64,000 nt of DNA from Tricharina praecox (lineage: Eukaryota): contig NW_026250403.1 of assembly GCF_024521635.1 (NCBI RefSeq), positions 1,798,001-1,862,000 of the forward strand. Direction: 5' to 3'. The first letter of the stretch is position 1, and each line of letters opens with the position of its first letter. The notes beneath the pieces are model-generated. The model was not told the DNA's origin. It did not search any database and was given only the letters and a program-made list of their open reading frames with translations. Below, piece by piece: positions 2,593-47,974 of the stretch. Both the position numbers and the translations under genes were made by a program.

Positions 2593-2869
2593 CAGCTTTC
2601 AGGTTGGGCGCAATATGGTTCGTTTGGCTTCGCTTTGTTGTATTAAGTACTGTTTCTCATTGCTGTTTCCCATTCATAATACCCAAATTATCATCAGATG
2701 TTTCTGCTTTCTGTCTCTACCGTGTTCTTTGTCTATGACTTATGTAATCAAACCTTCGCAGTTGAGTCTGGCCTATCATCCCGAGGTGTTGCCGTCGAAC
2801 GTCGGCATTTTGCGCCCGTCAGTCGTCGGCACGCACTGCAAAATGAAAATTGGCAAAAGATCAATTTAG

Positions 2870-2960
2870 CGACCACGATGCGACTCGAACGCACAATCTT
2901 TGGCGAACTTCTATTCCTGAGAACCGAAAACCAACGCCTTAGCCATTAGGCCACGCGGCC
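2870..2960 (-). tRNA. tRNA-Arg(TCG) with 18-nt intron, copy 1
   Basis: Reverse complement GGCCGCG TGGCCTAATGGCTAAGGCG TTGGT TT TCG G [TTCTCAGGAATAGAAGTT] C GCCAA AGATT GTGCG TTCGAGT CGCAT CGTGGTC G. 73 nt mature; A and B boxes present; T-run downstream. Confidence 0.95.
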
Positions 2961-6625: not shown

Positions 6626-6716
6626 CGACCACGATGCGACTCGAACGCACAATCTTTGGCGAACTTCTATTCCTGAGAACCGAAAACCAACGCCTTAGCC
6701 ATTAGGCCACGCGGCC
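6626..6716 (-). tRNA. tRNA-Arg(TCG) with 18-nt intron, copy 2 (identical to copy 1)
   Basis: 91-nt sequence identical to 2870-2960 including the intron; T-rich terminator follows. Confidence 0.95.
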
Positions 6717-7057: not shown

Positions 7058-8392
7058 CTAATCTGACTTGACTCCTTTGTTCCGCACTGGCTCCCCATCC
7101 TCATCAAATTGCGCCCACTCAAAGAAGCCGCAACCTTTGCCATCACCCGTGTCTGCACGGTACGGCGCCGCACAGTTCCAGAAGTAGCGGCGGGGAGCGT
7201 CCGCATCTGTAGGGTCGGGCGAAAACACTGCGCGTAGGGTCATCGGAAGATTACATTTACCTATGATCGCCACGGTATCAGCTAAATATGTAACCTGCCA
7301 GCAGAGTGGGGAATAGGGAGGCAAACATCTTGGCGTCAACTCGGGTTTTAAGCTCCGCCGATAGCATCGATACGTGATATTGATCCTGACATCCGCCGAG
7401 ACCGGATGTAGATCTATCGCCCTCACGGGATGCACACAATGCTTCCACGCCTCCTGCATACCCGCATGCATGATAACGAGACTATTATGCGGCAGATGAA
7501 CCGCATATGCGCCCTCACCCGGATCTTCTTCGTCATCTTTCGAAGCCCTCCGAACGCGGAACTCCCGCTCCACACCCAAACTCAGCCCAGCTATCACCGC
7601 CATGGGACCGAGATACGTGACCTCGTCTGTGTGCCATCCAACCGCTTGTTTCGCGCCCTGGTAGCGGTTCACCAGTGCCGCGTTGGTGCTCCACGGAATG
7701 GGACTGAGACCCCACGGCTTCTTCTGGCCCTCGTAGCGCGCCGTGATTGCTGCGTTCACCGCATCCTCAACTAGTTTGGTGGCGGTGCGCATGGACGGTG
7801 TGTACGCTCTTGCCATGAGCGGCCGAGATTGGTAGGAATGGTACTGCTCTGTGTCTTCGGCGGGATTGCGAAGGAAGAAACCGCTGGTGTGCGGGCTGGT
7901 GACTTCGCGGTCGAAGAGCCGGAAGGATAATGGCGGTGGGAAGGTGTTGGATTCTTCAAGGAGCTCGCGGAGGAGAGAAATTGCCAGGGATGGTGGGAGG
8001 AACGATTGGATGAGTTCGACAGGACATGGCGCGTAGGCAATGGACGCGGGAGTATATAGATGCAGTGTCTCGCCTTTCTTGGGCGGGCGGACGGGTTTGG
8101 GTGCTACGTTACTGGTAGGCTGGCGGAGAAAACATGAGAGAGAGGATTGCTGGCGGGCTTGTTTGGTGGGTCGCCTGGGAGGCGAATCGGAAAGAAGCAA
8201 CGATGCGGTATGGACGGAGCCATTGCTGGCGAGGAGTGTCTCCAACAGTGTGGTTAGCGAGACGGTGGGGTGGAGGGATAATAGGAGAGCGAGTTTGGTA
8301 TCGGTGCTTTCTTCACTGTCTTCAGCATCGGCAGGCAGAAGTGGGGATGAGAGCCGCCGTTTCTTCGTGGGCGGTGGTGATGGATCTGCCAT
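7058..8392 (-). CDS. AlkB-family 2OG-Fe(II) oxygenase with N-terminal CUE-like region and C-terminal GRF zinc finger; in-frame intron 7261-7326
   Basis: NAALVNRY..VGWHTDE (HxD), IAGLSLG, LPHNSLVIM..MQEAWKHCV, RINITYR; after splicing RCKC..M.LR..RYFWNC..KGCGFFEW (GRF-type). Confidence 0.9.
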   Translation of the reverse strand: MADPSPPPTKKRRLSSPLLPADAEDSEESTDTKLALLLSLHPTVSLTTLLETLLASNGSVHTASLLLSDSPPRRPTKQARQQSSLSCFLRQPTSNVAPKPVRPPKKGETLHLYTPASIAYAPCPVELIQSFLPPSLAISLLRELLEESNTFPPPLSFRLFDREVTSPHTSGFFLRNPAEDTEQYHSYQSRPLMARAYTPSMRTATKLVEDAVNAAITARYEGQKKPWGLSPIPWSTNAALVNRYQGAKQAVGWHTDEVTYLGPMAVIAGLSLGVEREFRVRRASKDDEEDPGEGAYAVHLPHNSLVIMHAGMQEAWKHCVHPVRAIDLHPVSADVRINITYRCYRRSLKPELTPRCLPPYSPLCWQVTYLADTVAIIGKCNLPMTLRAVFSPDPTDADAPRRYFWNCAAPYRADTGDGKGCGFFEWAQFDEDGEPVRNKGVKSD

Positions 8393-8846: not shown

Positions 8847-9910
8847 TTACCGACTCCCGATCGTCCCGCCCACGTCCCACACCCATACGGTCTCATCCCA
8901 TCCGGTACTCGCAGCCCAACCCTCCCCACCAAAGAGACACCAATCCACGCCGGCCACAAACTCGGTATGCCGATCCATCACCCCCATCATCTTCCCAGCA
9001 CCAGTTGGCGCCGCCATTCCGCCGACCCCACCGTCCGCCGACCCATCCGACCAAACGCGGACACTCATATCATAGCTGCCACTGAGCAGGACATCCTGCC
9101 AATGCGGGCTCCACGCCACTCTCCTGACAGCATACTCATGGCCCGCCAGCTGCGTCTGCACCTGCCCGGGCATCTTCAGATCCCAGATGCGGATGGTGCG
9201 GTCCACGCCCGCAGTGGCCAGGACGGACGGGCGGTACTTGTTCCAATCCTGCGTGAGCACCTCGCCCGGCGACACCCGCGTCTTTGCGATTTCCGCGGAG
9301 GGCTCGGGCGCGCGCAGGTCAAACACGCGCATGAAACCGTCGCTCGAGACCGCGCTCAGCACTGTCGGCGAGCTCGGCTGGAAGGCAACGCTGTATGTGC
9401 AGCTGCCGATGTAGATTGTTCGCAGACTCGTCGGCGCCATGGGGTTCCAGATCTTGATGTTGCCATCCCAGCTGCTGGACGCGAAGGTGTTCTTGTCCAC
9501 GAGGTTCCACGAGAGTGAGAAGACTTCGCGCGTGTGTTCGCGCCATTGCTGCACGGGGAAGTCGTTTAGAGTCGCGTCGTAGAGCTTTATGCTGCCGTCG
9601 CCTGAGGCTACGGCGAGCTGGTTGCTGTTGGATTCGCTGAAGGCGACGTCGAAGAGGGAGTCTTGCGTGTCATACCTTTCATCATCGCGAGGCTTTTAGC
9701 ATGGAAGCTCGGAAGGTGGAGTACGAACGCGGGGGAGAGGGCAAACCATTTTTCAGCAACGATTCCTTGTGGCGTGAGTGCAAGGATGTAGAGACGGCCG
9801 TTCCCCACAAGTCCAAAGTTCGCCGACGCGGCGCAGGCGATGCGAGAGTCGAAGAAGGGCGAGTACTTGACGGCGTAGCCGTTGTAGCCCGTGGTGCGGA
9901 AGCTGAGCAT
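8847..9910 (-). CDS. PEX7: Peroxisomal targeting signal 2 receptor (WD40); intron 9676-9746
   Basis: MLSFRTTGYNGYAVKYSPFFDSRIACAASANFGLVGNGRLYIL, DWNKY, GHEYAVRRVAWSPH, HTEFVAGVDWCLFG. Confidence 0.96.
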
Positions 9911-11100
9911 CGAGAGGACGGCGAGCGGGATTTCGGATTAGAGGTTCGGTGTAAGGAGCATCGCTGCTAGGGGTGCTGCACGTTCGGTGGTGGTGGTGAT
10001 GGTACCTCACATGGGTTGCCGAGGCCGAGGGTATGCGTCCTCCCCCGCAATGTCGCACAGTGCTTGCCGCTATACAGTTACGGGTGGCGATGATGCATGT
10101 GCCGACGACGCTAAATTAACGGTCTGTAAATCACTCGTGCCCATTCGATGTAAACAAGATATTCTCATCCTCTCGCGCAGGAGTTCTTAGGCAATATCGA
10201 CTTCGGCATGTATCACATATGCCCAGGAGAGAGACCATTACCTTTCAAAGTAAAGGAAGGAATCCCTCGTATGCCCAACTTGCCGGATTCTGGGCGGAGA
10301 GGTGGAATGAAGTTAGGAAAGAAAGCGTACATAGCACCTGCTACCGATGAATGGAAAAGGTGGTTACAGTTATTGTGGGCTGAATAGAGGGTTAGAGGGG
10401 ATTTTTTGGGAGATAATCTACGGGTCATATTGCCCGACCAATCGCCATTCATGGGAAATCACTGGCTCAATGTGGCCGACCAACCAACGATCAGGCTGAA
10501 TGAATCCTTCTTCACCGAGGGGAAGATGGTTCCAAGCATGCCGACGAAAGAGCCAATGAGCATGCGCAAGCACCACCCGTACGGACCACGGAAGAAACTG
10601 CGAGCAGATCCAACGCCGGCGATAGAAGTTAGCAAAGCGGTGGCCTCGCGCACGCCATCTTCATCACGAACTGACAAGGCCTAAACCGTGAAATCAACTA
10701 CAATTCAAGTGATCTCCTCCCAACCACGCCTCCACTCTCCACTCACAGAAGATATCCGCAGACGGTCAAAGCAAATCGACAAGCGCCCCAATGCAATCCC
10801 AACAAAGTGAATGACAAAAGGAGAAAAGGAAGAAAAAAAAAGAAATCTCAAGTGACCAGACGCCATGCCATGCACCCTCTAGATATCATTCAGTTCCCAG
10901 CCTTCTGGTCCTCGTCCGCCTTTTCGTCCTCCTCGTCCATCGGTTCGGGTATGTAAAGTATCACAGCGCAAATCATCAAATAGGGTGGCCACCCAAGAAA
11001 AAAACATTGCTTGTATCCTCCTCCATTAGTCGCCTCCGTCGAACTTGGCTATCTATGTATGTACTAATAGCATGAGAACTGCCACTCTTCTATGCCATAT

Positions 11101-26202: not shown

Positions 26203-29200
26203 ATGCCGCTACCGCCGAACATGATCTCCAAATCGACGTCGCCGTCCTCCATCGGCACCCAAGGAGCGCCCAAACGCCGAAGAAAGACGACCACCGACGA
26301 AAGCTCGCTTCCCCGGTTAGCGATCGACTCTTCGCTCGGCGGGAATGCTTCTCCTACGGCGGCGGCGGCAGTAGCGACGCCGCAGAGCGCGGGTGGAGCG
26401 AGCGCGGGTCCCGGAACTGGCAGCAGCAGCGGTGGCAGTGGTGCTTCTTCGTCGTTCAGAAATGTCTCAGCATGTAACCGATGTCGCCTGCGTAAGAATC
26501 GCTGCGACCAGCGATTGCCAGCCTGTATGAGTTGCGAGAAGGCGGTATGTAGGCTTTTTTTCTTCTCTTGAGATCTTCTACCTCCCCTCGACTTTCCTGT
26601 CTATCGTGGCTGCTGCCTGCGCGCAAACGACTTGAGCCTCACCGATCTATTCTTCCCTTTTCTCTCTCTCTCTCTCTCTCCCTCTCGTGTATTCTGCCAG
26701 CGCTGAACAATTTTCTCTCAAGGGTGTGCGATGTGTAGGTGTGTAGCCCTTCACGGTTCCCTGTCTGCAATATCTCTGCGTTTCCCCCGCCCGTTCGTTA
26801 TCACGCTTGCTGCACTGCTATCTATACATCGCAATCGCGGGGATGAGGCTCGGCACTTGTGTGCTCCGGGAGTGTCCAGCGGCTGAGATTGTGGTTGACT
26901 GACATGTCGTCCCGCAATAGGTTACGACCCTATAACGAAGAGAGAGATCCCGAGGAGGTCAGTGCCGTCATTTCTTTTGCGACCCCTCCATGTCCCGATC
27001 CTGCGGTTCGGCTGGGCCGGGTGCTGGCGAATATTCGATCTTCGGGTCGGGATGTCGCAACCCAATCCAACCCCCCACTTGACTCCCTGGTATCTGTCGC
27101 GTTGGATGTGACCCGTCGATTCTGACATCTCCACAGCTATGTGCATTACCTGGAAACCCGAGTCGCGTACCTCGAATCGCTATGCACGACCAATAACGTC
27201 GCCTTTCCGCCGGCGGATGACTTCCCCGATCTGCCCCCTATTCAAACGTCCTCCGCCATGTCCGCACCGCCGACCGCGACGGCCCTCCATGCTCCCCCGC
27301 TACCTGGCGCGTCGTCGCCAACGGGCACACCCATCGACCCTGCCCTGAACGAAAGCGGGCGTCCATCACCGAGAATCAAGCGTGAGTCGTCGGAAGGCTT
27401 GGAAGGGAAGAAGCTCGACAGCTTGGTGTCGGATATTGGACTCGTGTCTTTTGCCGGCGCAAGCGACCCCCGCTACCTCGGTTCCGTATCGGGCATCTCG
27501 TTCGCGCGGGTGGTTTTCGCGGCGGTCAAGAGCAGCGCGCCCGGCTCGGGCAGCTCCAACGAACAGAACGGCAGCGAGCCGCAGAAGGGCCGTGGTAAGC
27601 GGATCAGGTCCAACAGTCGCGTTCGCGGTTCGAGAGGCCTGGGAATGGGCGGTGCGGCAACGAAGGAGAACCCCGAAGTTGAGGTTGACGCCGATACGCA
27701 AATGAGGGATTCGTTCTTCGGACTCCACACCAAGCCTACGATCTTACCGGCCCCGTTCCCGACTCGTCCTGTCGCCGAGCGTTTGGTGCGTCTCTACTTC
27801 GAGCATGCGAACCCGCAGATCCCGTCGCTTCATCGTGGGGAGTTCAACAGTGTTCTGGAGGCCATCTATGGCCCAATCGAGGCCACAATGAATGGAGTTT
27901 CGGACTACGGTGTACAAGGCGAAGGTCTCGGTGGATCGGCGCGAGAGCGCTATCTTCTCAACATCGTGTGTGCTATCGGCGCCGGAATCTTCCTTACCGG
28001 CCCCGAGGAATCGCCCGAATCCGATGACGAGGAAGAAGGTGAAGATGGACCGAGAAAAAAGCAAAAGGTAGACTCGAAAAATCGCAAAGAAAAGAAGAAG
28101 CAAAGCGAGCCAGAATCTTACCACGCGTCGGCGATGCTTCACCTCGAAGCATTCCTCAGCCAGAGCAAGGGAGGGCTTGATGAGCTCCAGGCTGTTTTGC
28201 TGCTAGCCGGCTACGCACTTCTCCGGCCGGTGTCTCCGGGCCTCTGGTACATCGTGGGAGTCGCAGTGCGGCTGGCGGTGGACTTGGGCTTGCACTACGA
28301 GGACGCAGATATGGAGACCAAGAAGCCTGTGAAACAAGAACCCAAGACGGAAAAGGAGGGGAGGAAAGAGTGGGTTCGGGATATGCGGAGACGGCTCTGG
28401 TGGTGCGTATACAATCTGGATAGGCTGGTCAGCACCTGTGTTGGAAGGCCATTCGGAATTGCCGATGAAGTCATCAGCACCCAGGTACAGTGGACGATCC
28501 GACATCACAACTGCTTACTTTACCGTTCTGACTTTTTCATCATTAGTTTCCTTCCATGCTGGATGACGAGTACATTCACCCGACCAAAGGGCTGATGCAA
28601 CCCCCTCCCGGAGAGAATCCGCCAACATATAAAGCCATATCTCATCATTATACTCGCCTTCGCCTGCTACAATCCGAAATACTTCAGGTCCTACAGCAAC
28701 AATCGCATGCATTCTCATTCGCCTCAGCATCCTCGGAAACCGCCTTCAAGAAGGACATTTACAAGGGCAAACAAAATTATCCTCACCACCACCCATATCA
28801 TCTCCAGACGCCATATCTGAGCGGCCATAACTCGCTGCAAGCCTGGCACCGGGACGTTGATCGGAGATTGAAGGAATGGATAGATACTGCGCCCAAGTCG
28901 ATTGCCGAGACCGGTGTCGAGTTCTCCCCCGAATTCCTCGAGTTGAACTACTGGCAGGCAAAGATCATGCTCTATCGACCTTGTTTGTCGGTTCCGGTGC
29001 TCTTGGCCGGCGAATTGGGTGCTAGCAGTGGCAACGCACGTTCGCGGGCTGCCGAGAGAGGCCTGGGAGAAGGTGCTGCGGTGTTGCACGGGCGACGAGA
29101 AGACGAAGAGCGGGTTTACATGATCGTCGCTGAAGCGGGAAGCAAGGTTCTTCGGATTTATAGGCAGCTGCATCGCGTGCATCAGGTCAACTACACTTTC

Positions 29201-39693: not shown

Positions 39694-41028
39694 TTACGAC
39701 CTCTCCCCACCGCCCGCATTTTGTTTCGCCTGATGCAAGTCTTAATTAGTATCGAGAACATGAACGTATGGCAGGGGTCCGTCATACCTGAAGTTTCTGC
39801 AGAGTGAGCAGAGACGTATGGTGGTTGTCTTTGAGCCTCTGATTTTCCTTCTCGAGCCTCTCCGCCCTCGTTTGCGCCTCCTTCCGCTCCGCCTTCTCCT
39901 CTAGTAACAGCTTCTCCAGCGTCTCGTAGCAGCTCCGGGGCACAAAATCTCGATAGAATTGGTATTGTGATTCCGAGGGCGGAGCGAACACACCCATACC
40001 GTCGTTGCTGATGGTTGGGGTCGGGGGAGGGCCCCTTTGCCTGATCGTGGAAACAGGTGCCTCGATGCCCATGCTTGACCGACCCGCCGGCGTGTCGCTG
40101 CCCAAGCCAAAAGGATCCATAACCGAGTAACTACGGGGGGCCTGTTGGGCTGCAGAGGGCGTTGGAGCGGGACCTTGAGCGATCTTCCGAACGCCGGCGT
40201 CGTGGTCGCTCTGCATATCGTTGCCGGCGTCGACTGTCATTTGCTGTCCGTGCGAGTCGCCAACCCGATAGCCGGTGGGCATAGCGTCCGGGGAGAAAAG
40301 GGGTTCGCGAGCGGGAGTGGTAGCGATACCGACGGCATTCGGTCGCGTCGAATTGACCGAAACCATCCTCCGTGTCGGATGTAAAGCGCTGCGTGCAGAC
40401 ATGGGTTCTTCCCTGTCACATAAGACGACAATATGCATCTCCTCGATAGCTCTCTGGAGCTCGTAGGCACGGATAATGTTCGGCGGACATGTTGGGTCGG
40501 TGGCTGGGTCGCAGAAACTGAGAAGATTGGCGAAGTGTTTCCGCAGGAATTTGAAATCACGGTGCTTTCTTCCCGCGCACGCCTCGTCGCATCGCCGGTT
40601 GTACGCAACCTCGACCTAAAAATGATGCAAGCGCGTCAGTGATATTTTTACTGAATGCCGGGGGATGACCGTACTGTCCGCCAGATGTCACCCATGTGAT
40701 GGCCGCTCGTAACCGTTTCCCCGACGGAATTTAGCATCCGAAGCTCATCGGTCTCGGTAAACTTCTGTGCTCCTTTCGGCTTGCCTCCGCGCTTCTTCTT
40801 CGGCATTGGGGGAGCATTCTCGGGCTGAGACGGATAGAGACCGTTGTGGTCGTGGCCATCAGCGGTAGAAGCATCGTCAAGAGTTGACTAATTTTGCTCG
40901 AAAAAAGGTTGTCAGTTCGGTTTACCTCGACGAGAGTGCACGGTGGAGAGCTAACTGAGGCGTACCATAGCTTCTTCCTGACTTTTGCGCTTGGTGCCGC
41001 TGGACCGAGTTACTGTCGTGACGGCCAT
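39694..41028 (-). CDS. Multi-exon protein with a Myb/SANT-like DUF6818-like domain and C-terminal coiled coil (3' end approximate)
   Basis: Spliced exons: MAVTTVTRSSGTKRKSQEEAM | ..KKKRGGKPKGAQKFTETDELRMLNSV..DIWRT | VEVAYNRRCDE..RKHRDFKFLRKHFANL..PATDPTCPPNIIRAYELQRAIEE; donors GTACGC, GTACGG, GTATGA. Confidence 0.7.
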
Positions 41029-43477
41029 ACGGAGCTGCCCGGAAGGCAGAAGTGGTGTGGAAGTGAGTTTCGATTGAGGTGGGAGAGTGCTTTCTTCTCG
41101 TGCCTAGCCTCGCGTCCGTTTGTCGTGGTGAGAGTTCGCGACTGGACAGAAATATTCGCTGGCTTTTACGCGGCGGCTGGGCGCTCGAGAAAGGAACGGT
41201 GGTGAACGACTAGTCTATTGCCCTTGGCTACACAGAGGCTAAAGGTCAGGTTAGAACCGCGACCCACGCAATGTCGAGAACCGGCTTCTATGGCGCGTTC
41301 TATGTTTTTTTCGACGCGAAGACGCTTTGCTTATGCATGCCTTTTCCGAACGAGCACGCGTGCCACTTTCGCAGGCGGCTTGGCTGTGGTCGAGATAAAG
41401 TTGGCTTGGCCGGGATTAGTGCTGTTGTTCTTCTAGGGCGATCGGCTTACATGGCTTGTCTGAGGAATTCCAATCAAGCGATACTTGAGGATAGTTGAAT
41501 GTGTGTCAACGAGAGTTCTAAGGCTGAAATGGCAGAGCACGACGGCGGCCTGGACACATCATATCAAGGTAGTTGCAATTGCTCATAATATATATATACA
41601 TACCGGCATATACCTACACCAGGCGTACATACGTTGACTCACCACAGGTCAGTAATTCGTATGCGTTGTGGTTGTGAGCATTGGTCCAGTTATCGAGGAT
41701 CTGATAGACCGTATGCGGACACGTCAGCGTGGACGATGATTTGTGTAACCCATTAGTTTCGTGCCCTTTCGGAGGCCGCGACCTGATCCTCCAAGTGGAA
41801 GTGGCCCTGTGGCAAACGACCAGGCCTTAGACACTTCTCCAGAAGCTAAACCTCGCCTACTTGCTAAAATTCTCTCCGTAGTAAAATGTAAAAGCGCATA
41901 TGACTCTAATGAGGCTGAGCGGTTAAACGATCCTCCTACCACGAGTGGCGTGTTTACATGGTGAGAAAGCGGAATATACGCTGGTCCAGACCTCTAGCCG
42001 TTATATCTCGAGGCACAACCGAGTCATTTCGACTTTTTCCCAGTTAGTATGTAGCCGGCAGGAAATCCCGATTGGTAGCAAGAGAGATAGTCTCATGAGT
42101 GTCATTGGAAGAAGACCTTGGCAGCGTCATCCCCGAAATTCCAAGACTTCAACTTGCAGAACTGGCACCTGGGTGCTGTGTCTTCGCATGAAAATTCTCA
42201 ACCGTTATACGGTAGTCCTGCTCTAGTCGGCCCCATTTCAAGCAAGTCATCTCGGGATCCGTTCATTCGCTCGTGGGTAGCATGGAAAATTTAATGTCGA
42301 CAAATTACCGATCAATGTGGCGATCAAGACGACCTCAGGTTTGAGTTACGCAGATAATTATCCTTCCATTTATTTACAAGCCAAACCACACGCACTACCT
42401 ACCGGTAGGAATACCCTCTTACTAGCTACCAAGCGCGACTATGCGGTATGAGAGCGGAAATTATCGTCAACTGGGAATTCTGCACCATGCGCCAGGTAGG
42501 TATAGGTCTTCTTTTCAATCGCTCCTGACTATGGGGATCCGCCACTGCACATCTCCATGTTGACATCAAAACCCAGCTTCTCATGATTTCTCATGTTGAT
42601 TATCACGCGTTTATTTCACTGTTTGTCACTCGATCGTTTCGCTGATTTTCTGTGTTTGTTTCACTGTCATGTTTTACTGTGGTTGGTAGGCACCGGCGCA
42701 GCAACGGGCCGTGGCGGTAGAGCTTTCTCTCTACCCCACGGAGCTGGTAGGAAAGGTCGAGAAGTTGGTGGTCGCCATTGTCTAGCAAGGCCGCATAAGA
42801 ATAAATTGATGTTCTCTCTCTCTCTTATGTTCTACTGTAAAAAATATTGTGTCTAGGCGGTATGTATCTTGGTGCCTATAAAAGTACTCTCCTTTCGTAC
42901 CAAGCCATCTCTCTATCTCTTACATAGTAATTATTAGAATACATTCTTACTTTCTTCACCGATGTTTCTAACATCTCACTTGAAGCGCGAGCGAGTGACT
43001 GCGGGGTGGCATTATCCTTCCAAGACTCTTCAAATGTAGCCGAACAGCTGCTGTCGCTTGAACCTGTTCTTTCACGGCGGCTTGCACCATACTATCGGCC
43101 AGGCATGAGAGCTGCTAGCCAGCTGACGTTGAAAATATGCCGCCGCAGGCAACATTTAGAAGCGCGGAGCGTACACAAACCCCTTCTATTACCTTCACAG
43201 TTGGAGAACCTCCGGGCCCGAGAAGTCAGTACTGCGCCCTTGAAGGGTCGTGACCTTTCGCATCCTTCTATAGAGTGAGATCGAAGCATAAGTAGGGCGT
43301 GCGGGTCCCACATCCCCCCTCCCTCCCTCATTCCAGCAAGCAAAGAATCCAGGGATCCTAACGAGAAAAAGAACTGAATACAAACTTCAACCTTCCATTG
43401 ACCAGCAATACGAACGACCTCACCTTAATATCAATCAGAAATACGAACAACTTCACCGAAACACACTACCTATCACA

Positions 43478-44212
43478 ATGTCTCAAGCACCTACCGGTTC
43501 CTCCGCGAATCCCGCGGAACTCCCGAACGGTATTCCAGACCACCGGGCAATGCCACCACCAGCACCTCAAGTAGAACAAGTTGCGGACAAAGGTGCGCCG
43601 GCTACGGGCGACCAGCCAAACCTCGACCAGCCCAACATCGACCAGATCATGCAAGACCTCACCTCGGCTCCGGATGGCGACCCTCTGCCGCTCGAGCAGA
43701 TACAAGCCTGGTTTCAGCAGCAGATCGACATGGCAGAAGCCTATAATCAAGCGGCAGAGCAGGCGGAGCACGCGGCCGAAGTCGAGCGTCTACAGCGCGA
43801 GGTCAATCGGCTCCAACACGAGGCCAACCCAGAGCAAGCGGCCGAGCTCGAGCGTCTACGGCGCGAGGTCAATCGGCTCCAGCAAGAAGTCAATCGTCTC
43901 ACCGAAGACAATACCCGCTTGCATTTTCAGCAAGGGGTACTTCTTATGCCGCCGATCAACCAGGGAATCCAGATCCCTATGCTGGAGCAGCAATTGCAGG
44001 TGGTGGCACAACAGCGAGACGTGTATCGCGCGAGATTTGAGGCATCGGTGGTCCGGATCAGGAATTTTGAACAAGAATATCGGATGAGTAGGGCCATGCG
44101 TGAACGCATGGTCCAAATCATTCGAAATTTACTGAGGCAGTTGGGGGAGGGAGATGATCTCCGTGGGCGTGGTGGGATTGGTATGGATTACTACTTTCGG
44201 AGGCACCTGTAA
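43478..44212 (+). CDS. Hypothetical coiled-coil protein with an internal repeat (AEVERLQREVNRLQ x2)
   Basis: 244-aa ATG ORF in a good context (CACAATG). Confidence 0.65.
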   Translation: MSQAPTGSSANPAELPNGIPDHRAMPPPAPQVEQVADKGAPATGDQPNLDQPNIDQIMQDLTSAPDGDPLPLEQIQAWFQQQIDMAEAYNQAAEQAEHAAEVERLQREVNRLQHEANPEQAAELERLRREVNRLQQEVNRLTEDNTRLHFQQGVLLMPPINQGIQIPMLEQQLQVVAQQRDVYRARFEASVVRIRNFEQEYRMSRAMRERMVQIIRNLLRQLGEGDDLRGRGGIGMDYYFRRHL

Positions 44213-44492
44213 GTTTTTTCGGATAGAGCAATTTTTACTTGTGGAGATTTGTCAATGCCTTGGTAGCTGAAATCACTGTCCTGTTGTTGTTATGAGGGAG
44301 TGGAAGTATTCTTAACAAGAAGATCGATTCATCTGAGTGATAGGTAACTAAACACGCCAACCATTCCCAAACTTGCATCCTAATTCCAAGCAGGCTTCTA
44401 GCTGATCTTACCAGCCACATTTAAAGTTGTCACAAAAAAAATGGTATTTTCATAGAACCTCAACACCTACGGAGGGGAAGCAAAAAAGAGAT

Positions 44493-44576
44493 CGACCATG
44501 ATGCGACTCGAACGCACAATCTTTGGTGAATTTCGTTAACCGAAAACCAACGCCTTAGCCATTAGGCCACACGGCC
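44493..44576 (-). tRNA. tRNA-Arg(TCG) with 11-nt intron, copy 3 (isodecoder)
   Basis: Reverse complement GGCCGTG...TTGGT TT TCG G [TTAACGAAATT] C ACCAA ...CGCAT CATGGTC G; 73 nt mature; TTTTTT follows. Confidence 0.95.
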
Positions 44577-45090
44577 TCTTATTTACAAATTTCCAGAAGT
44601 ACAGACTTTGAGCAGAATTCTTCTGGCTGCAAACCTACACAACGATGGAGGAATTGATGTTCCGCTAGCTCACCTTCTACTCGCCGACCTCTCTAGCATA
44701 AGAAGGTATGCACGCATTCTTATATCCAGCTCACAGGTCTAGATTGGACAAATCTCGAAGTCTTGGTCGTGGCTAAGTTACTCTACCGTGGGTGAAACGT
44801 TGTCCTGAAACTTCACGGTTCAAAGTTTACAGTCTACCATTAATAAGTTTAGCACATTCATGATGATTCTAACTTAGGTGTTCAATATATGCCCAATTCT
44901 ATCCGCCCCGGTCAACTTGTAAATTTCAATTCGCACCACTGAAACTTTTCTCGAGTGAGCACATAAACCCCCCACAACCCGTAACTTCACCGTGTCCCTA
45001 GCTCTTCCGCACCATTCACCATCCACCATTCACCACCTTCCTCCACCTCCAATTCTACCATCACCTCCACCAACAACCAAACATATCACA

Positions 45091-45462
45091 ATGCGTCCCA
45101 AAGGCACATACAAAGCGGCGCACTCGCTCGCGGCGCGCGCTACCGAGGCCGCGCAACACCGGGCGCGCTACACACCACCGCGGGTTCCGGTGATGCTCGA
45201 GCACGCGCGGAGCACGCAGAGGCATCGGCTGGAGCTAGTCAGCTCGGTGTTTCTCTGCCCGCCGGACCTGCGGCTGTCCGAGTTCATGTACAATGTCCGA
45301 CGCAAGACGAAGATGCCCGCGAATATCGCCGTGTTCTTGATGGCTGATGGACTGCTGGTTTCCCTGGCGACGACGATGGGAGAGCTGTATCAGCAGGCCA
45401 GAGATGATGATGGGTGGTTGTATATCGTCTGGACTGAGGAGAGTACTTTCGGCTGCGCTTAG
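45091..45462 (+). CDS. Divergent Atg8/GABARAP/LC3-family ubiquitin-like protein, intronless, 123 aa
   Basis: Colinear with Atg8: YKAAHSLAARATEA..HRARY, RVPVMLE, FLCPPDLRLSEFMYNVRRK, AVFLMAD, TMGELYQQARDDDGWLYIVWTEESTFG-CA. Confidence 0.88.
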   Translation: MRPKGTYKAAHSLAARATEAAQHRARYTPPRVPVMLEHARSTQRHRLELVSSVFLCPPDLRLSEFMYNVRRKTKMPANIAVFLMADGLLVSLATTMGELYQQARDDDGWLYIVWTEESTFGCA

Positions 45463-46743
45463 GGGAGGAAAGTGGCTTTCTGGAGTTTGTTGTTGAGCGA
45501 GGGAGAGGAAACTTCGGTATATGATGAAGGGGGGGGTTTTTTTATTGGGTTGTTAGTCGATTTCCAGCGAAATTTGTAGGTATTCTACTTATGCATACAG
45601 GCCTTTTGTATCTACTATGGCGGGCTCCAGGATGGTGACCAAGTCTGAATGGCAATGCCGATGAACAAGCCGCAAGTGTCTAAGCATCGGTGAGACGGCG
45701 TGCATGTTCTATCTAACTCTGCATCAAGAAGTTTAACTTTTGCATTTAAAACTCTGATACCGCCGGAAACATCGTTGACTTACCAGAGACAGAGTCTAGA
45801 ACTTGCAAACGCAACACACGCCGGTGAATAGAGTGCACCCGTTCTTCGTATCATCACTGTGAAACGGGTGTCCCTGCCGATATGCCCGTATTCTCAGTAC
45901 CGTCCATCTCGAGGTCTCCTTCGAGTGCCAATGACCGACGATTGACTGGGCGTGTTCTTGGACGGAGCTCGTTGCGTTTTTCTACATCTCAACATATCCG
46001 AGCTGGTACCGTGTGCCATATCGCACTTACCGGCCCGTCCTTCCCCAGCAATCATCTCGAAATCTTCCCAATCCAGCCCGCTCAGGATCTGCACATGTGA
46101 CATGTCCGTAGAACTGCCGCCGGATTTCGATTTGTTGGTCGGGCTCGGTGCTTTGTTTCGTGATGTGGTGGAAAGAAGATGCATGTGAGACGGAAATCTT
46201 GACGAGACGGGAATCTTGTCGAGATGCAGTCAAGTAGTACAGGTGAGAACCAGAATCCTGTGAATGGTAGTTAGCCGCCGATTGGTCGCCAGCCCACGCC
46301 AGACTCGCAGCCCGTCCTGCATACAACCTTATCGGGCCGCATGTAGAGTCTGCAACCCTGCCATCCTGCTGACTCGACGCGACCCTGCATGAGCATAAAG
46401 ACAAAATGGGAATGGCTACACCTGCCAACTTCATGTAAGGCTCAATTGGAATACATGTTGCCAAGGGCAAGTAGCTGCTACCGATCTAAAAAGGACGGCG
46501 GAAATCCTCAGCCTGGCCAGCCTGGGAGGACCCCAAGATATGGGGAAAATCGATCATAGCCGGGTGTCAACGAGTGATAAAATATGGATGAGTATGCAAC
46601 CCGATTGCCCGACCAGGCTAGGAGTCTCCAAACCAAACTTTTGCAATGCAAGATGAAATTGAGCTACAGCAAATCATGCAGTTCCTAGTAATAAAATCAA
46701 CCGAACAGTTGCTTTTACCACCTGCAAACCTGCCAAGAGCCAC

Positions 46744-47520
46744 TCACTCCCGCTTTTCCAAAACCCACCATCTCTGAATCTCGCCATCCACAACCTCGCT
46801 AACCCTCAATCCCGCCTCCTCAATCTCCGCTCTCCACCTCTCATCATCCCACCTGGCCAAAATACTCCACTGACATTCCCCCCTCCACTGCCGCTCGCCA
46901 CCCACCCACCTCTCAACCACAAACCGATCTGTCCTCACATCGCCCGCCCACGTCGCCGTCGTCGGCGTCTTCTTATAGACGATTCTATCCTCGCTCTGCA
47001 AGGCGAGCACCTCTGCCTGCGCTCCATCCCCCTCCCCATTCCCCTCTTCCTCGTCACGGAGCACACTAACAACCGCCACCCCACCCTGTCTCAACACCCT
47101 CGCCAACCCCTTCAAAAACGCCTTCCTCTCCTCCCTATCAACGAGATGCCCGACCCCGCCCGCTGCAGACACCGCAAGGTCCACCTCCACCTCCGGCAGA
47201 CTCGCAGCACTAGCACACACCCAGTGTACCTCCCGCTGCGTAGTCTCCCTCGCGCGCGCCAGCATAGCCTCGGAATGATCGACCGCCCAGATTTCCGCCC
47301 CATTGGCGGCAGCGGGCAAGGCGCGGATCACGGCGCCAGTGCCAGTGCCGATGTCGAGGATCTTGGGGGAGGGAGTGTGAGGGAATAGTCGGCAGAGCAG
47401 AGGCGAGATGGCGTCCGCTCCAGTGCCGAATAGTGACGTTACCCAGAGGTCGTAGAATAGGGGGAAGTACGCGTGCGTGTATGCGTATGTGGTGGGGTGC
47501 GTGCGGAGTTGCGAGTCCAT
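46744..47520 (-). CDS. Class I SAM-dependent methyltransferase
   Basis: Motif I KILDIGTGTG, WAVDHSEAMLARA, LARVLRQGGVAVV; likely start MDSQLR at 47520. Confidence 0.88.
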   Translation of the reverse strand: MDSQLRTHPTTYAYTHAYFPLFYDLWVTSLFGTGADAISPLLCRLFPHTPSPKILDIGTGTGAVIRALPAAANGAEIWAVDHSEAMLARARETTQREVHWVCASAASLPEVEVDLAVSAAGGVGHLVDREERKAFLKGLARVLRQGGVAVVSVLRDEEEGNGEGDGAQAEVLALQSEDRIVYKKTPTTATWAGDVRTDRFVVERWVGGERQWRGECQWSILARWDDERWRAEIEEAGLRVSEVVDGEIQRWWVLEKRE

Positions 47521-47974
47521 TTTGTTCTCGTGTGCAGTGATGCGGGGCGGGGATGGGAGGGCGGGAAGGCGGTTTATGTACACAGTGCACACTGAGCGGA
47601 GTGTTGCACGATGCGGGATTCGGAAAATCATACCCTCCGACGGCTGAGGTTGGCCCACAAAAAGCAATTATCACAGCTCAATCCGGCGGGCGGAATTGCA
47701 TGATTTGTTTTTCTTGTGCAGTCAGATCACGGTCGAGCGATCTAGATTATGATAGGATAACTGCGCACTGTTTTGTCTGTTGCTGTTGCATCGCACGTGC
47801 GCCGTCAAAAAAAAGAAAACTAGGGAAGAACCGAGTGATAGCTGTATTGTGCATCCAACGCGATGAGTTAACGATACATGTACGTATAAGAGGTATGAAT
47901 ATATCCAACAAATTACGCCCAAGACAAGAAAACTATGGAGTAGGTATATGGATAGACAATTCCAGCCTTGCGAA

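Follow-up and report, generated by a model that had tools for sequence, protein, structure and literature searches.

Ascomycetes are, to our knowledge, generally held to carry one nearly invariant Atg8. A stretch of 64,000 nucleotides from Tricharina praecox, hereafter the window, raises the question whether this species carries a further, functional gene of the Atg8 family and, if so, whether its product would still be attached to membranes and still be read by the usual receptors. An initial annotation had proposed here a second, intronless Atg8 with an intact scissile glycine and a remodelled receptor-docking strand, belonging to a non-canonical pathway. In yeast a single Atg8 is described (PMC7564214).

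The gene and its product

An open frame of 123 codons on the plus strand of the window (45091-45462) encodes a 123-aa protein, P0001, which ends T119-F120-G121-C122-A123 before the stop codon. In an ATG scan its start at 45091 was the sole ATG within 44901-45093. The gene and the features inside it are as follows.

45091-45462 (+): intronless divergent Atg8-family gene encoding P0001, 123 aa (Pfam, PDB alignment, model, dN/dS 0.19)
45241-45261 (+): strand beta-2 of the AIM/LIR docking site, codons 51-57 (alignment on canonical ATG8; model strand 53-56)
45292-45294 (+): N68 in place of V63, hydrophobic pocket 2 (alignment; pocket residues as given in PMC7564214)
45415-45417 (+): W109 in place of F104, hydrophobic pocket 1 (alignment)
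45448-45462 (+): F120-G121, predicted Atg4 cut and lipidation site, then C-A and stop (sequence; residue roles as given in PMC12005411)

The Pfam ATG8 family (PF02991; curated cut-off 27 bits) matched P0001 at 80.1 bits (E = 1.6e-22) over model positions 2-104 of 104, and 112 PDB chain sequences matched at E <= 0.001. P0001 is collinear over its full length with the GABARAPL2, plant ATG8 and yeast Atg8 chains, leaving no gap that an intron could fill; the closest solved structures by sequence are GABARAPL2 and plant ATG8f, ahead of yeast Atg8. The clean 123-aa frame, its end-to-end alignment with Atg8, its TFG-CA terminus and its lack of introns, all part of the initial annotation, were confirmed by translation, Pfam and PDB alignment. 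An AlphaFold2 model of P0001 from a 50-row alignment (pLDDT 88.6) has two N-terminal helices (residues 6-10 and 13-26) and a ubiquitin fold with a beta-strand at 53-56, and it matches GATE-16 (Z 18.5, rmsd 1.7 over 116 residues, TM 0.85) and canonical fungal Atg8 structures (Z 17.5-18.4). From eight rows of the clade described below alone, the best pLDDT was 81.6 and two of five models failed. The Atg12 family (PF04110) gave no match to P0001 at E up to 1; for this reason, and because the N-terminal helices are present and the genome's Atg12 lies on contig C13, Atg12 was rejected as its identity. We conclude that P0001 is a member of the Atg8/LC3/GABARAP family. Its database annotation is a truncated 89-aa model (P0002) only.

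Atg8 copies and conjugation enzymes in the genome

The Tricharina praecox assembly (38.4 Mb, 104 contigs) contains three Atg8 loci, the same three being found with the ATG8 family model and with three protein queries. The canonical ATG8, on contig C8, has three GT-AG introns (78, 113 and 67 nt, after CDS nt 8, 90 and 323) and encodes a protein 98-99% identical to five other proteins in the comparison. P0001 is 30% identical to this protein and does not group with ascomycete ATG8 in trees, so it was rejected as the ascomycete ATG8 orthologue, the true orthologue being the C8 gene.

The third copy, P0006 (C1:1197627-1198295, plus strand; L002:1204-1872), is a single open frame of 222 aa, recorded in the database as a 92-aa fragment (P0171) only. 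Over the Atg8 domain it shares 36% identity with P0001; its beta-2 region is shortened, with P30 and P52 missing, and a Thr/Ala-rich arm precedes the domain at the N-terminus. The first 26 residues of P0006 and of its counterpart P0170 (77% identity) make a strongly amphipathic helix (moment 0.42); a moment as high was reached in one of 5000 shuffles for P0006 and in none of 5000 for P0170. Three 11-residue repeats follow the helix in P0006; at this period, 15 of 27 positions are identical. Such 11-residue repeats are reminiscent of the membrane-binding helices in perilipin and synuclein. A candidate fourth copy, L024 (E = 0.04), had no Pfam match and was not counted. The proposed second Atg8, additional to an intron-bearing canonical gene, is borne out insofar as P0001 is an extra copy, but it is in fact one of three and lies within a multi-genus clade.

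Profile searches of the genome placed Atg4, Atg7, Atg3, Atg10 and Atg12 at one locus each (a single Pfam model covers both Atg3 and Atg10, whose two matches were told apart by score and by the Atg3 translation). No dedicated conjugation enzymes for P0001 were found among them, each enzyme having one locus, which speaks against a separate non-canonical pathway in the sense of a pathway with its own enzymes. Atg3 (L014:1489-2514, minus strand, contig C39) is apparently a single uninterrupted frame of 342 aa, in which a long insert rich in Thr and Ala directly precedes an AIM-like W-E-Q-V motif (residues 302-305). A predicted complex of P0001 with the AIM-like Atg3 segment 283-314 (score 0.02, mark 0.34) was uninformative either way.

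Relatives of P0001

Three word-index searches and one full phmmer search returned a small, specific set of relatives; these searches rest on gene calls and shared words and say little on other Pezizales. Identity to P0001 is 68-69% for P0003 and P0005, 52% for P0156 of Sphaerosporella brunnea and its fragment P0010 (auto-named Atg8-domain protein), 50-52% for the two compared members of the five-protein P0161 cluster, and 40-43% for P0013 and P0162, both of which terminate at the conjugation glycine. The set also includes P0170, the counterpart of the third copy. No close relative of this glycine-ending subgroup was found in the Tricharina praecox genome. P0010 and P0156 are nearly identical, have close accession numbers and lie on a contig of equal length, probably reflecting a recent local duplication. 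The clade members with species names come from Tricharina praecox and Sphaerosporella brunnea (Pyronemataceae); the former name is also carried by a fragment identical to P0006 and by a cluster mate of a window protein. Among 171 proteins compared, a clade profile was clearly preferred over a general Atg8 profile only by these relatives.

The eight core rows grouped in trees with support of 99/92 and 97/89, and the ten rows made up of this core and two third-copy rows (P0006 and P0170) with support of 95/97 and 99/95. The third copy and the core clade share G-T-Y-K, D-G-W-L-Y, E111 and E59; the joining of the third-copy rows to the core may be long-branch attraction. The first tree had 63 rows; left out were fragments, near-duplicates, partial alignments, proteins with tandem domains and, of the lower-ranked matches, two out of every three. 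Later trees did without another 22, 24 and 21 rows that were long or redundant, and the bootstrap of the last was not settled. P0163 and P0062 were left out of the clade as ordinary Atg8s, L017 was rejected as a canonical-type viral Atg8, and a 20-residue bacterial match, L031, was taken as chance; no match was found in plasmids or phages. Loci L007 and L008 are 99.9% identical and were counted once. P0007, P0008 and P0012, among the top phmmer matches, contain two to four tandem Atg8 domains. Full-text searches of the literature, which covered subscription papers thinly, turned up no account of such a divergent clade among ascomycete Atg8s; tables in surveys of ATG gene evolution may list these copies.

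Neighbourhood, selection and transcription

A metagenome locus, L007, carries P0005 as the syntenic orthologue of P0001, in one open frame. Two neighbours of the gene in the window serve as reference points.

44493-44576 (-): tRNA-Arg(TCG) with an 11-nt intron, syntenic marker (Arg(TCG) identity, RNA contig, L007 copy)
43478-44212 (+): coiled-coil ORF of 244 aa with an internal repeat, belonging to no known family; syntenic neighbour (28% identical ORF in L007)

The tRNA gene, correctly noted at the outset as adjoining, lies 515 nt upstream of the Atg8 gene, and a 95% identical tRNA lies 846 nt upstream of the orthologue in L007. The upstream order in L007 is that of the window, comprising the coiled-coil ORF and a 76% stretch that matches window 40837-41156. 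Nucleotide matches to L007 were obtained in 4 of 30 window segments (400 nt, 40-52 kb), all at conserved elements. Downstream, the order is not conserved within the available 3.9 kb of L007, where retroelement fragments lie. The genome contains 140 reverse-transcriptase matches, none of them in the window, and GC around the gene is ordinary. With no reverse transcriptase, ordinary GC and the order of tRNA, coiled-coil ORF and 40.8-41.5 kb segment kept in a relative, the description of the region as accessory-looking was abandoned.

Several further observations were made in these regions. ARAGORN called 44493-44576 as tRNA-Glu(TTC); this was rejected for Arg(TCG) with an 11-nt intron because the gene is 83-86% identical to the window's two other Arg(TCG) genes and an RNA contig lacks the 11 nt. 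The three tRNA-Arg(TCG) genes of the window (2869-2960, 6626-6716 and 44493-44576 on the minus strand) have introns of 18, 18 and 11 nt. The coiled-coil ORF had no Pfam match over the cut-off and only atlas matches below 0.9. Window 40837-41453 has 72-76% nucleotide identity to L007, and the one frame examined there had no Pfam match. Non-LTR retroelement fragments (RVT_1, RNase H, zf-RVT) flank the orthologue at L007:1492-2431 and 9122-10000. Ordinary genes of the window encode a SET/CXC methyltransferase (1187-1855), a 2OG-Fe(II) oxygenase (7058-8392), a WD40 protein (8847-9440), a fungal transcription factor (27258-28595) and a small-molecule methyltransferase (46744-47631).

The coding sequences of P0001 and its L007 orthologue differ at 102 of 372 nt (28, 18 and 56 by codon position) with no indel. 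For this one pair, dS was 1.10 and dN 0.21, with a dN/dS of 0.19 (bootstrap 0.10-0.30). When neutral evolution was simulated to the same distance, the frame remained open in 28 of 5000 runs and 67% identity was reached in none of 5000. A comparison of dN/dS among orthologues, suggested in the initial annotation as a check, thus finds them intact, and we conclude that the gene is under purifying selection. It is very probably functional.

RNA was another check suggested, and contigs from three of four runs (X1, X2 and X3, from three studies) match the gene without mismatch: X1 at 45189-45717, X2 at 44991-45210 and 45215-45531, and X3 at 45015-45168. X3 is recorded as RNA-seq, whereas for X1 and X2 an RNA origin is a guess; the contigs carry neither strand nor level. 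These contigs delimit two flanking features.

44991-45090 (+): probable 5' leader, C/A-rich, without an upstream ATG (X2 contig from 44991 and X3 from 45015, no mismatch; strand and start are not shown by the contigs)
45463-45717 (+): probable 3' untranslated region (one X1 contig, 45189-45717, no mismatch; contig strand unspecified)

X4 had no matching contig. None of the four runs covers 43000-44358 or 44661-44962; missing contig cover is not informative. Matches of 32-33 nt at 45040-45072 (X1, X2) came from other, deep contigs and were ignored. A spliced joint in X1 with GTAAGT/CAG ends defines a 157-nt GT-AG intron at 45874-46030 on the minus strand, and this spliced RNA converges on the 3' end of the Atg8 gene; the adjoining ORF at 46027-46434 had no Pfam match. 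Because the contigs are strandless and antisense RNA heads towards the gene, transcription of the P0001 gene is likely rather than proven.

Conjugation face and docking site

The clade was aligned with the canonical C8 protein and a reference set of 52 other Atg8 rows; a residue counted as kept if three or more of the 52 carry it. Papers supplied the docking set as well as R65, F77, F79, F115 and G116. Y106, E112 and T114 were added as what we take to be conjugation-side residues, and the yeast-numbering equivalents used for E17, I21, P30, I32 and F104 are presumably correct. The pocket residues follow the LC3B list of the review PMC7564214, converted to yeast numbering through the pairs in PMC7564214 and PMC3686597. 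Across the eight core members, 63 of 64 cells were kept at R65, F77, F79, Y106, E112, T114, F115 and G116, versus 61 of 112 at the 14 docking-site positions, with the qualification that the site sets are author-chosen and that cells from related sequences are not independent. This difference upholds the combination, annotated initially, of an intact scissile glycine with a remodelled docking site.

On the conjugation side, the F and G of the cut site are kept in all 10 clade rows, and the residues after the glycine vary freely. The Atg4-recognition sites R65, F77 and F79 are R70, F82 and M84 in P0001. R65 is reported to be required for ATG4B cleavage, and LC3B to have L at the F79 equivalent (PMC3686597); F79 is one of two aromatic residues said to enter the membrane (PMC12005411). 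M replaces F79 in all eight core members and is found in 3 of the 52 other rows.

At the docking site, I21, V63 and F104 were kept in none of the eight core members and K48 in one; E17 departs in six (it is kept in P0001) and K46 in five. I21 is replaced by H, Y, C or L, V63 by N or K, and F104 by W in seven members and Y in one; W at this position occurs in 9 of 10 clade rows versus 0 of the 52 other Atg8 rows. In P0001, I21, I32, K46, K48, V51, V63 and F104 have become H23, M35, S51, V53, C56, N68 and W109. Its beta-2 strand reads S51-S52-V53-F54 versus the canonical K46-K47-K48-Y49, the loop before it is two residues longer, and Y109 is also replaced. Since P30, Y/F49, P52 and F60 are kept in all eight core members, and L50, V51 and I64 mostly, the docking scaffold stands and its lining has changed; P0161 keeps K48-Y49. 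By a sequence criterion, which is not a binding assay, P0001 departs from the canonical AIM/LIR site in both pockets and at K46/K48. H38, M84, W114 and E116 are fixed in all eight core members, which points to new constraint, not decay alone. The Y49F change was rejected as a sign of remodelling: F stands there in 9 of the 52 other rows, and as F52 in LC3B (PMC7564214). Of the docking-strand changes first described, the lost lysines and F104 to W (DGWLY) stand, but Y to F is ordinary; the telling positions are I21, K46/K48, V63 and F104.

Proposed role and alternatives

Atg4 is described as using the aromatic residue ahead of the glycine and cutting after the glycine, which Atg7, Atg3 and Atg12-Atg5-Atg16 then attach to phosphatidylethanolamine (PMC12005411). 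Atg4 would remove C122-A123 of P0001, and the shared Atg7 and Atg3 would join G121 to phosphatidylethanolamine; the kept F120-G121, R70 and F82, the free variation of the tail and the two members needing no cut argue for lipidation by the single shared set. The Atg7 C-terminal tail is reported to bind Atg8 at both hydrophobic pockets and at the neighbouring basic residues, and the K51A change in LC3B (K48 here) to lower or abolish LIR binding (PMC7564214). Because the Atg7 tail docks in the altered groove, loading of P0001 on Atg7 would probably be slower or conditional, and less efficient than that of canonical Atg8; the remodelling may even block lipidation instead of merely slowing it. Lacking K46/K48, and with H23 and W109 crowding pocket 1 and the polar N68 in pocket 2, membrane-bound P0001 should bind ordinary acidic W/F/Y-x-x-L/I/V motifs poorly, although some AIM binding may be left in the clade, since the pocket scaffold is kept. 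P0001 would then be a membrane coat that ignores canonical cargo receptors, or one that recruits a lineage-specific partner via the newly conserved surface. The whole chain, a functional old ATG8 paralogue with lipidation by shared machinery and changed receptor specificity, is on balance probable from the sequence comparisons.

The same protein might instead be a stage-specific but ordinary Atg8, lipidated and AIM-binding, whose differences reflect relaxed constraint on a back-up copy. The kept scaffold (P30, F49, P52 and F60, and mostly L50, V51 and I64) and the K48-Y49 of P0161 are consistent with this, a dN/dS of 0.19 is well above that suggested by the near-invariant canonical protein, and two Mucor circinelloides atg8 genes are described as alike on overexpression (PMC13300868). 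Member-to-member variation at I21, E17, K46 and K48 also fits plain relaxation. We nevertheless consider an ordinary back-up unlikely, as the changes cluster on one face (61/112 vs 63/64), a polar or charged residue occupies V63 in all eight core members, and W occupies F104 in seven of the eight and in none of the 52 other rows.

Unlikely too, in our judgement, is a regulator that is never lipidated and has retained its Atg4/Atg7-facing surface and F-G tail to serve either as a decoy that occupies these enzymes and damps canonical lipidation or as a soluble ubiquitin-like adaptor. G116 is invariant in 10 of 10 rows while later residues vary, and P0013 and P0162 end at the glycine, which is the pattern of a conjugated terminus. 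Such a regulator would fit a remodelled surface that is the very one by which the Atg7 tail catches Atg8, the replacement of F79 by M in all eight core members, and the description of some trypanosomatid ATG8 paralogues as having no clear autophagy role (PMC10104450).

Origin of the gene

The three introns of the parent gene have no counterpart in P0001, P0006 or the L007 orthologue, each an uninterrupted frame, a difference that also fits intron loss or a foreign source. Between the P0001 gene and canonical ATG8 no nucleotide similarity is left, and GC3 is 0.76 versus 0.79. A search of 45463-46000 for a poly(A) relic found no run of five or more A; survival of such a relic past dS >1 is not expected. 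In free trees a long branch leaves the clade without a settled place, apart from ascomycete ATG8; AU tests did not reject trees constrained to put the two side by side (p = 0.265 when the third copy was included, 0.459 when it was not). Retroposition is favoured because all three introns are lost, the genome holds its 140 reverse-transcriptase matches and GC3 is host-like. The P0001 gene is thus most likely, on sequence grounds, an old paralogue of the native ATG8, born by retroposition in the ancestor of Tricharina and Sphaerosporella (Pyronemataceae).

An intronless founder of the same protein could also be foreign, acquired horizontally from another eukaryote or from a giant virus. Atg8 is common in giant viruses (193 viral relatives), the gene lacks introns, the clade is apart from ascomycete ATG8 in all free trees, and the structures closest by sequence are GABARAPL2 and plant ATG8f, not yeast Atg8. 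Against these points, among 71 distinct proteins from the best 80 of the 193 viral relatives, none preferred the clade profile and none had the DGW or W-x-E-E motif of the clade; none of 19 viral Atg8s joined the clade in a tree, and no clade member turned up when viral sequences were scanned three times with clade queries. Because the viral set was chosen by likeness to a canonical-type query, the profile and tree comparisons sample divergent viral forms too thinly. Given also the host-like GC3 and a native origin that the AU tests did not reject, transfer appears quite unlikely. That the gene is a decaying processed pseudogene without function, as its 30% identity to the parent, its lack of introns and its truncated 89-aa database annotation might suggest, is scarcely credible in view of a dN/dS of 0.19, the lack of any stop or indel across a dS of 1.1, intact members down to 40% identity and exact RNA contigs.

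Discussion

P0001 shares with canonical fungal Atg8 (S. cerevisiae, PDB 3vh3 and 6wy6; Magnaporthe MoAtg8, 9j5g; the C8 copy) its fold, R65, F77, Y106, E112, F115-G116, a short post-glycine tail and one conjugation enzyme set. It differs in its 30% identity, in having no introns versus three in the C8 copy, in evolving much faster, and in the replacement of K46/K48, I21, V63, F104 and Y109. As in animals (GABARAP, GABARAPL2 and LC3; PDB 1eo6, 1gnu) and plants, several Atg8s in one genome share one cascade, and LC3B is like P0001 in having F at position 49. Plant ATG8h/i, like some clade members, are described as terminating at the glycine (PMC7301642). In the model-organism paralogues treated in PMC7564214, pocket residues and two key lysines are conserved, whereas they are replaced in the P0001 clade.

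The closest conceptual parallel is found in trypanosomatids, for which lineage-specific extra ATG8 families are described (Leishmania ATG8A/B/C, T. brucei and T. cruzi ATG8.2; PMC10104450). These belong to an unrelated lineage with up to 25 copies versus three in Tricharina, and the likeness lies in the extra, lineage-specific families, some of them with no clear part in autophagy (PMC10104450). Mucor circinelloides atg8-1 and atg8-2 offer a fungus with more than one atg8 gene, although in Mucoromycota and with similar phenotypes, the comparison being one of description, not sequence (PMC13300868). Giant-virus Atg8s resemble P0001 as divergent single open frames, some of them glycine-ending, but none of those sampled has the clade signatures or joins the clade in a tree.

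A conserved, selected family in which the conjugation face is kept and the AIM/LIR groove rebuilt would show that fungal Atg8 has diversified too. Because the groove is rebuilt here and kept in the reviewed animal and plant paralogues, this would be a different mode of Atg8 diversification. Since the conjugation glycine is already the last residue in the P0013/P0162 subgroup, its members would not depend on priming by Atg4. With clade proteins one could probe to what extent loading by Atg7 and Atg3 requires the docking site, and which role lipidated Atg8 plays on a membrane in the absence of cargo receptors, a matter relevant to non-canonical Atg8-ylation. A wider and rather doubtful possibility is that Pyronemataceae possess a second, receptor-orthogonal layer of Atg8-ylation driven by the shared enzymes, with at least two lipidated subfamilies unreadable by canonical AIM receptors: P0001 would present a new surface for binding a lineage-specific partner, and the third copy (C1:1197627-1198295) would be aimed at lipid droplets or stressed membranes by its N-terminal amphipathic arm. 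If this were true, these proteins would be natural separation-of-function forms of Atg8, in which membrane coating is split from cargo capture.
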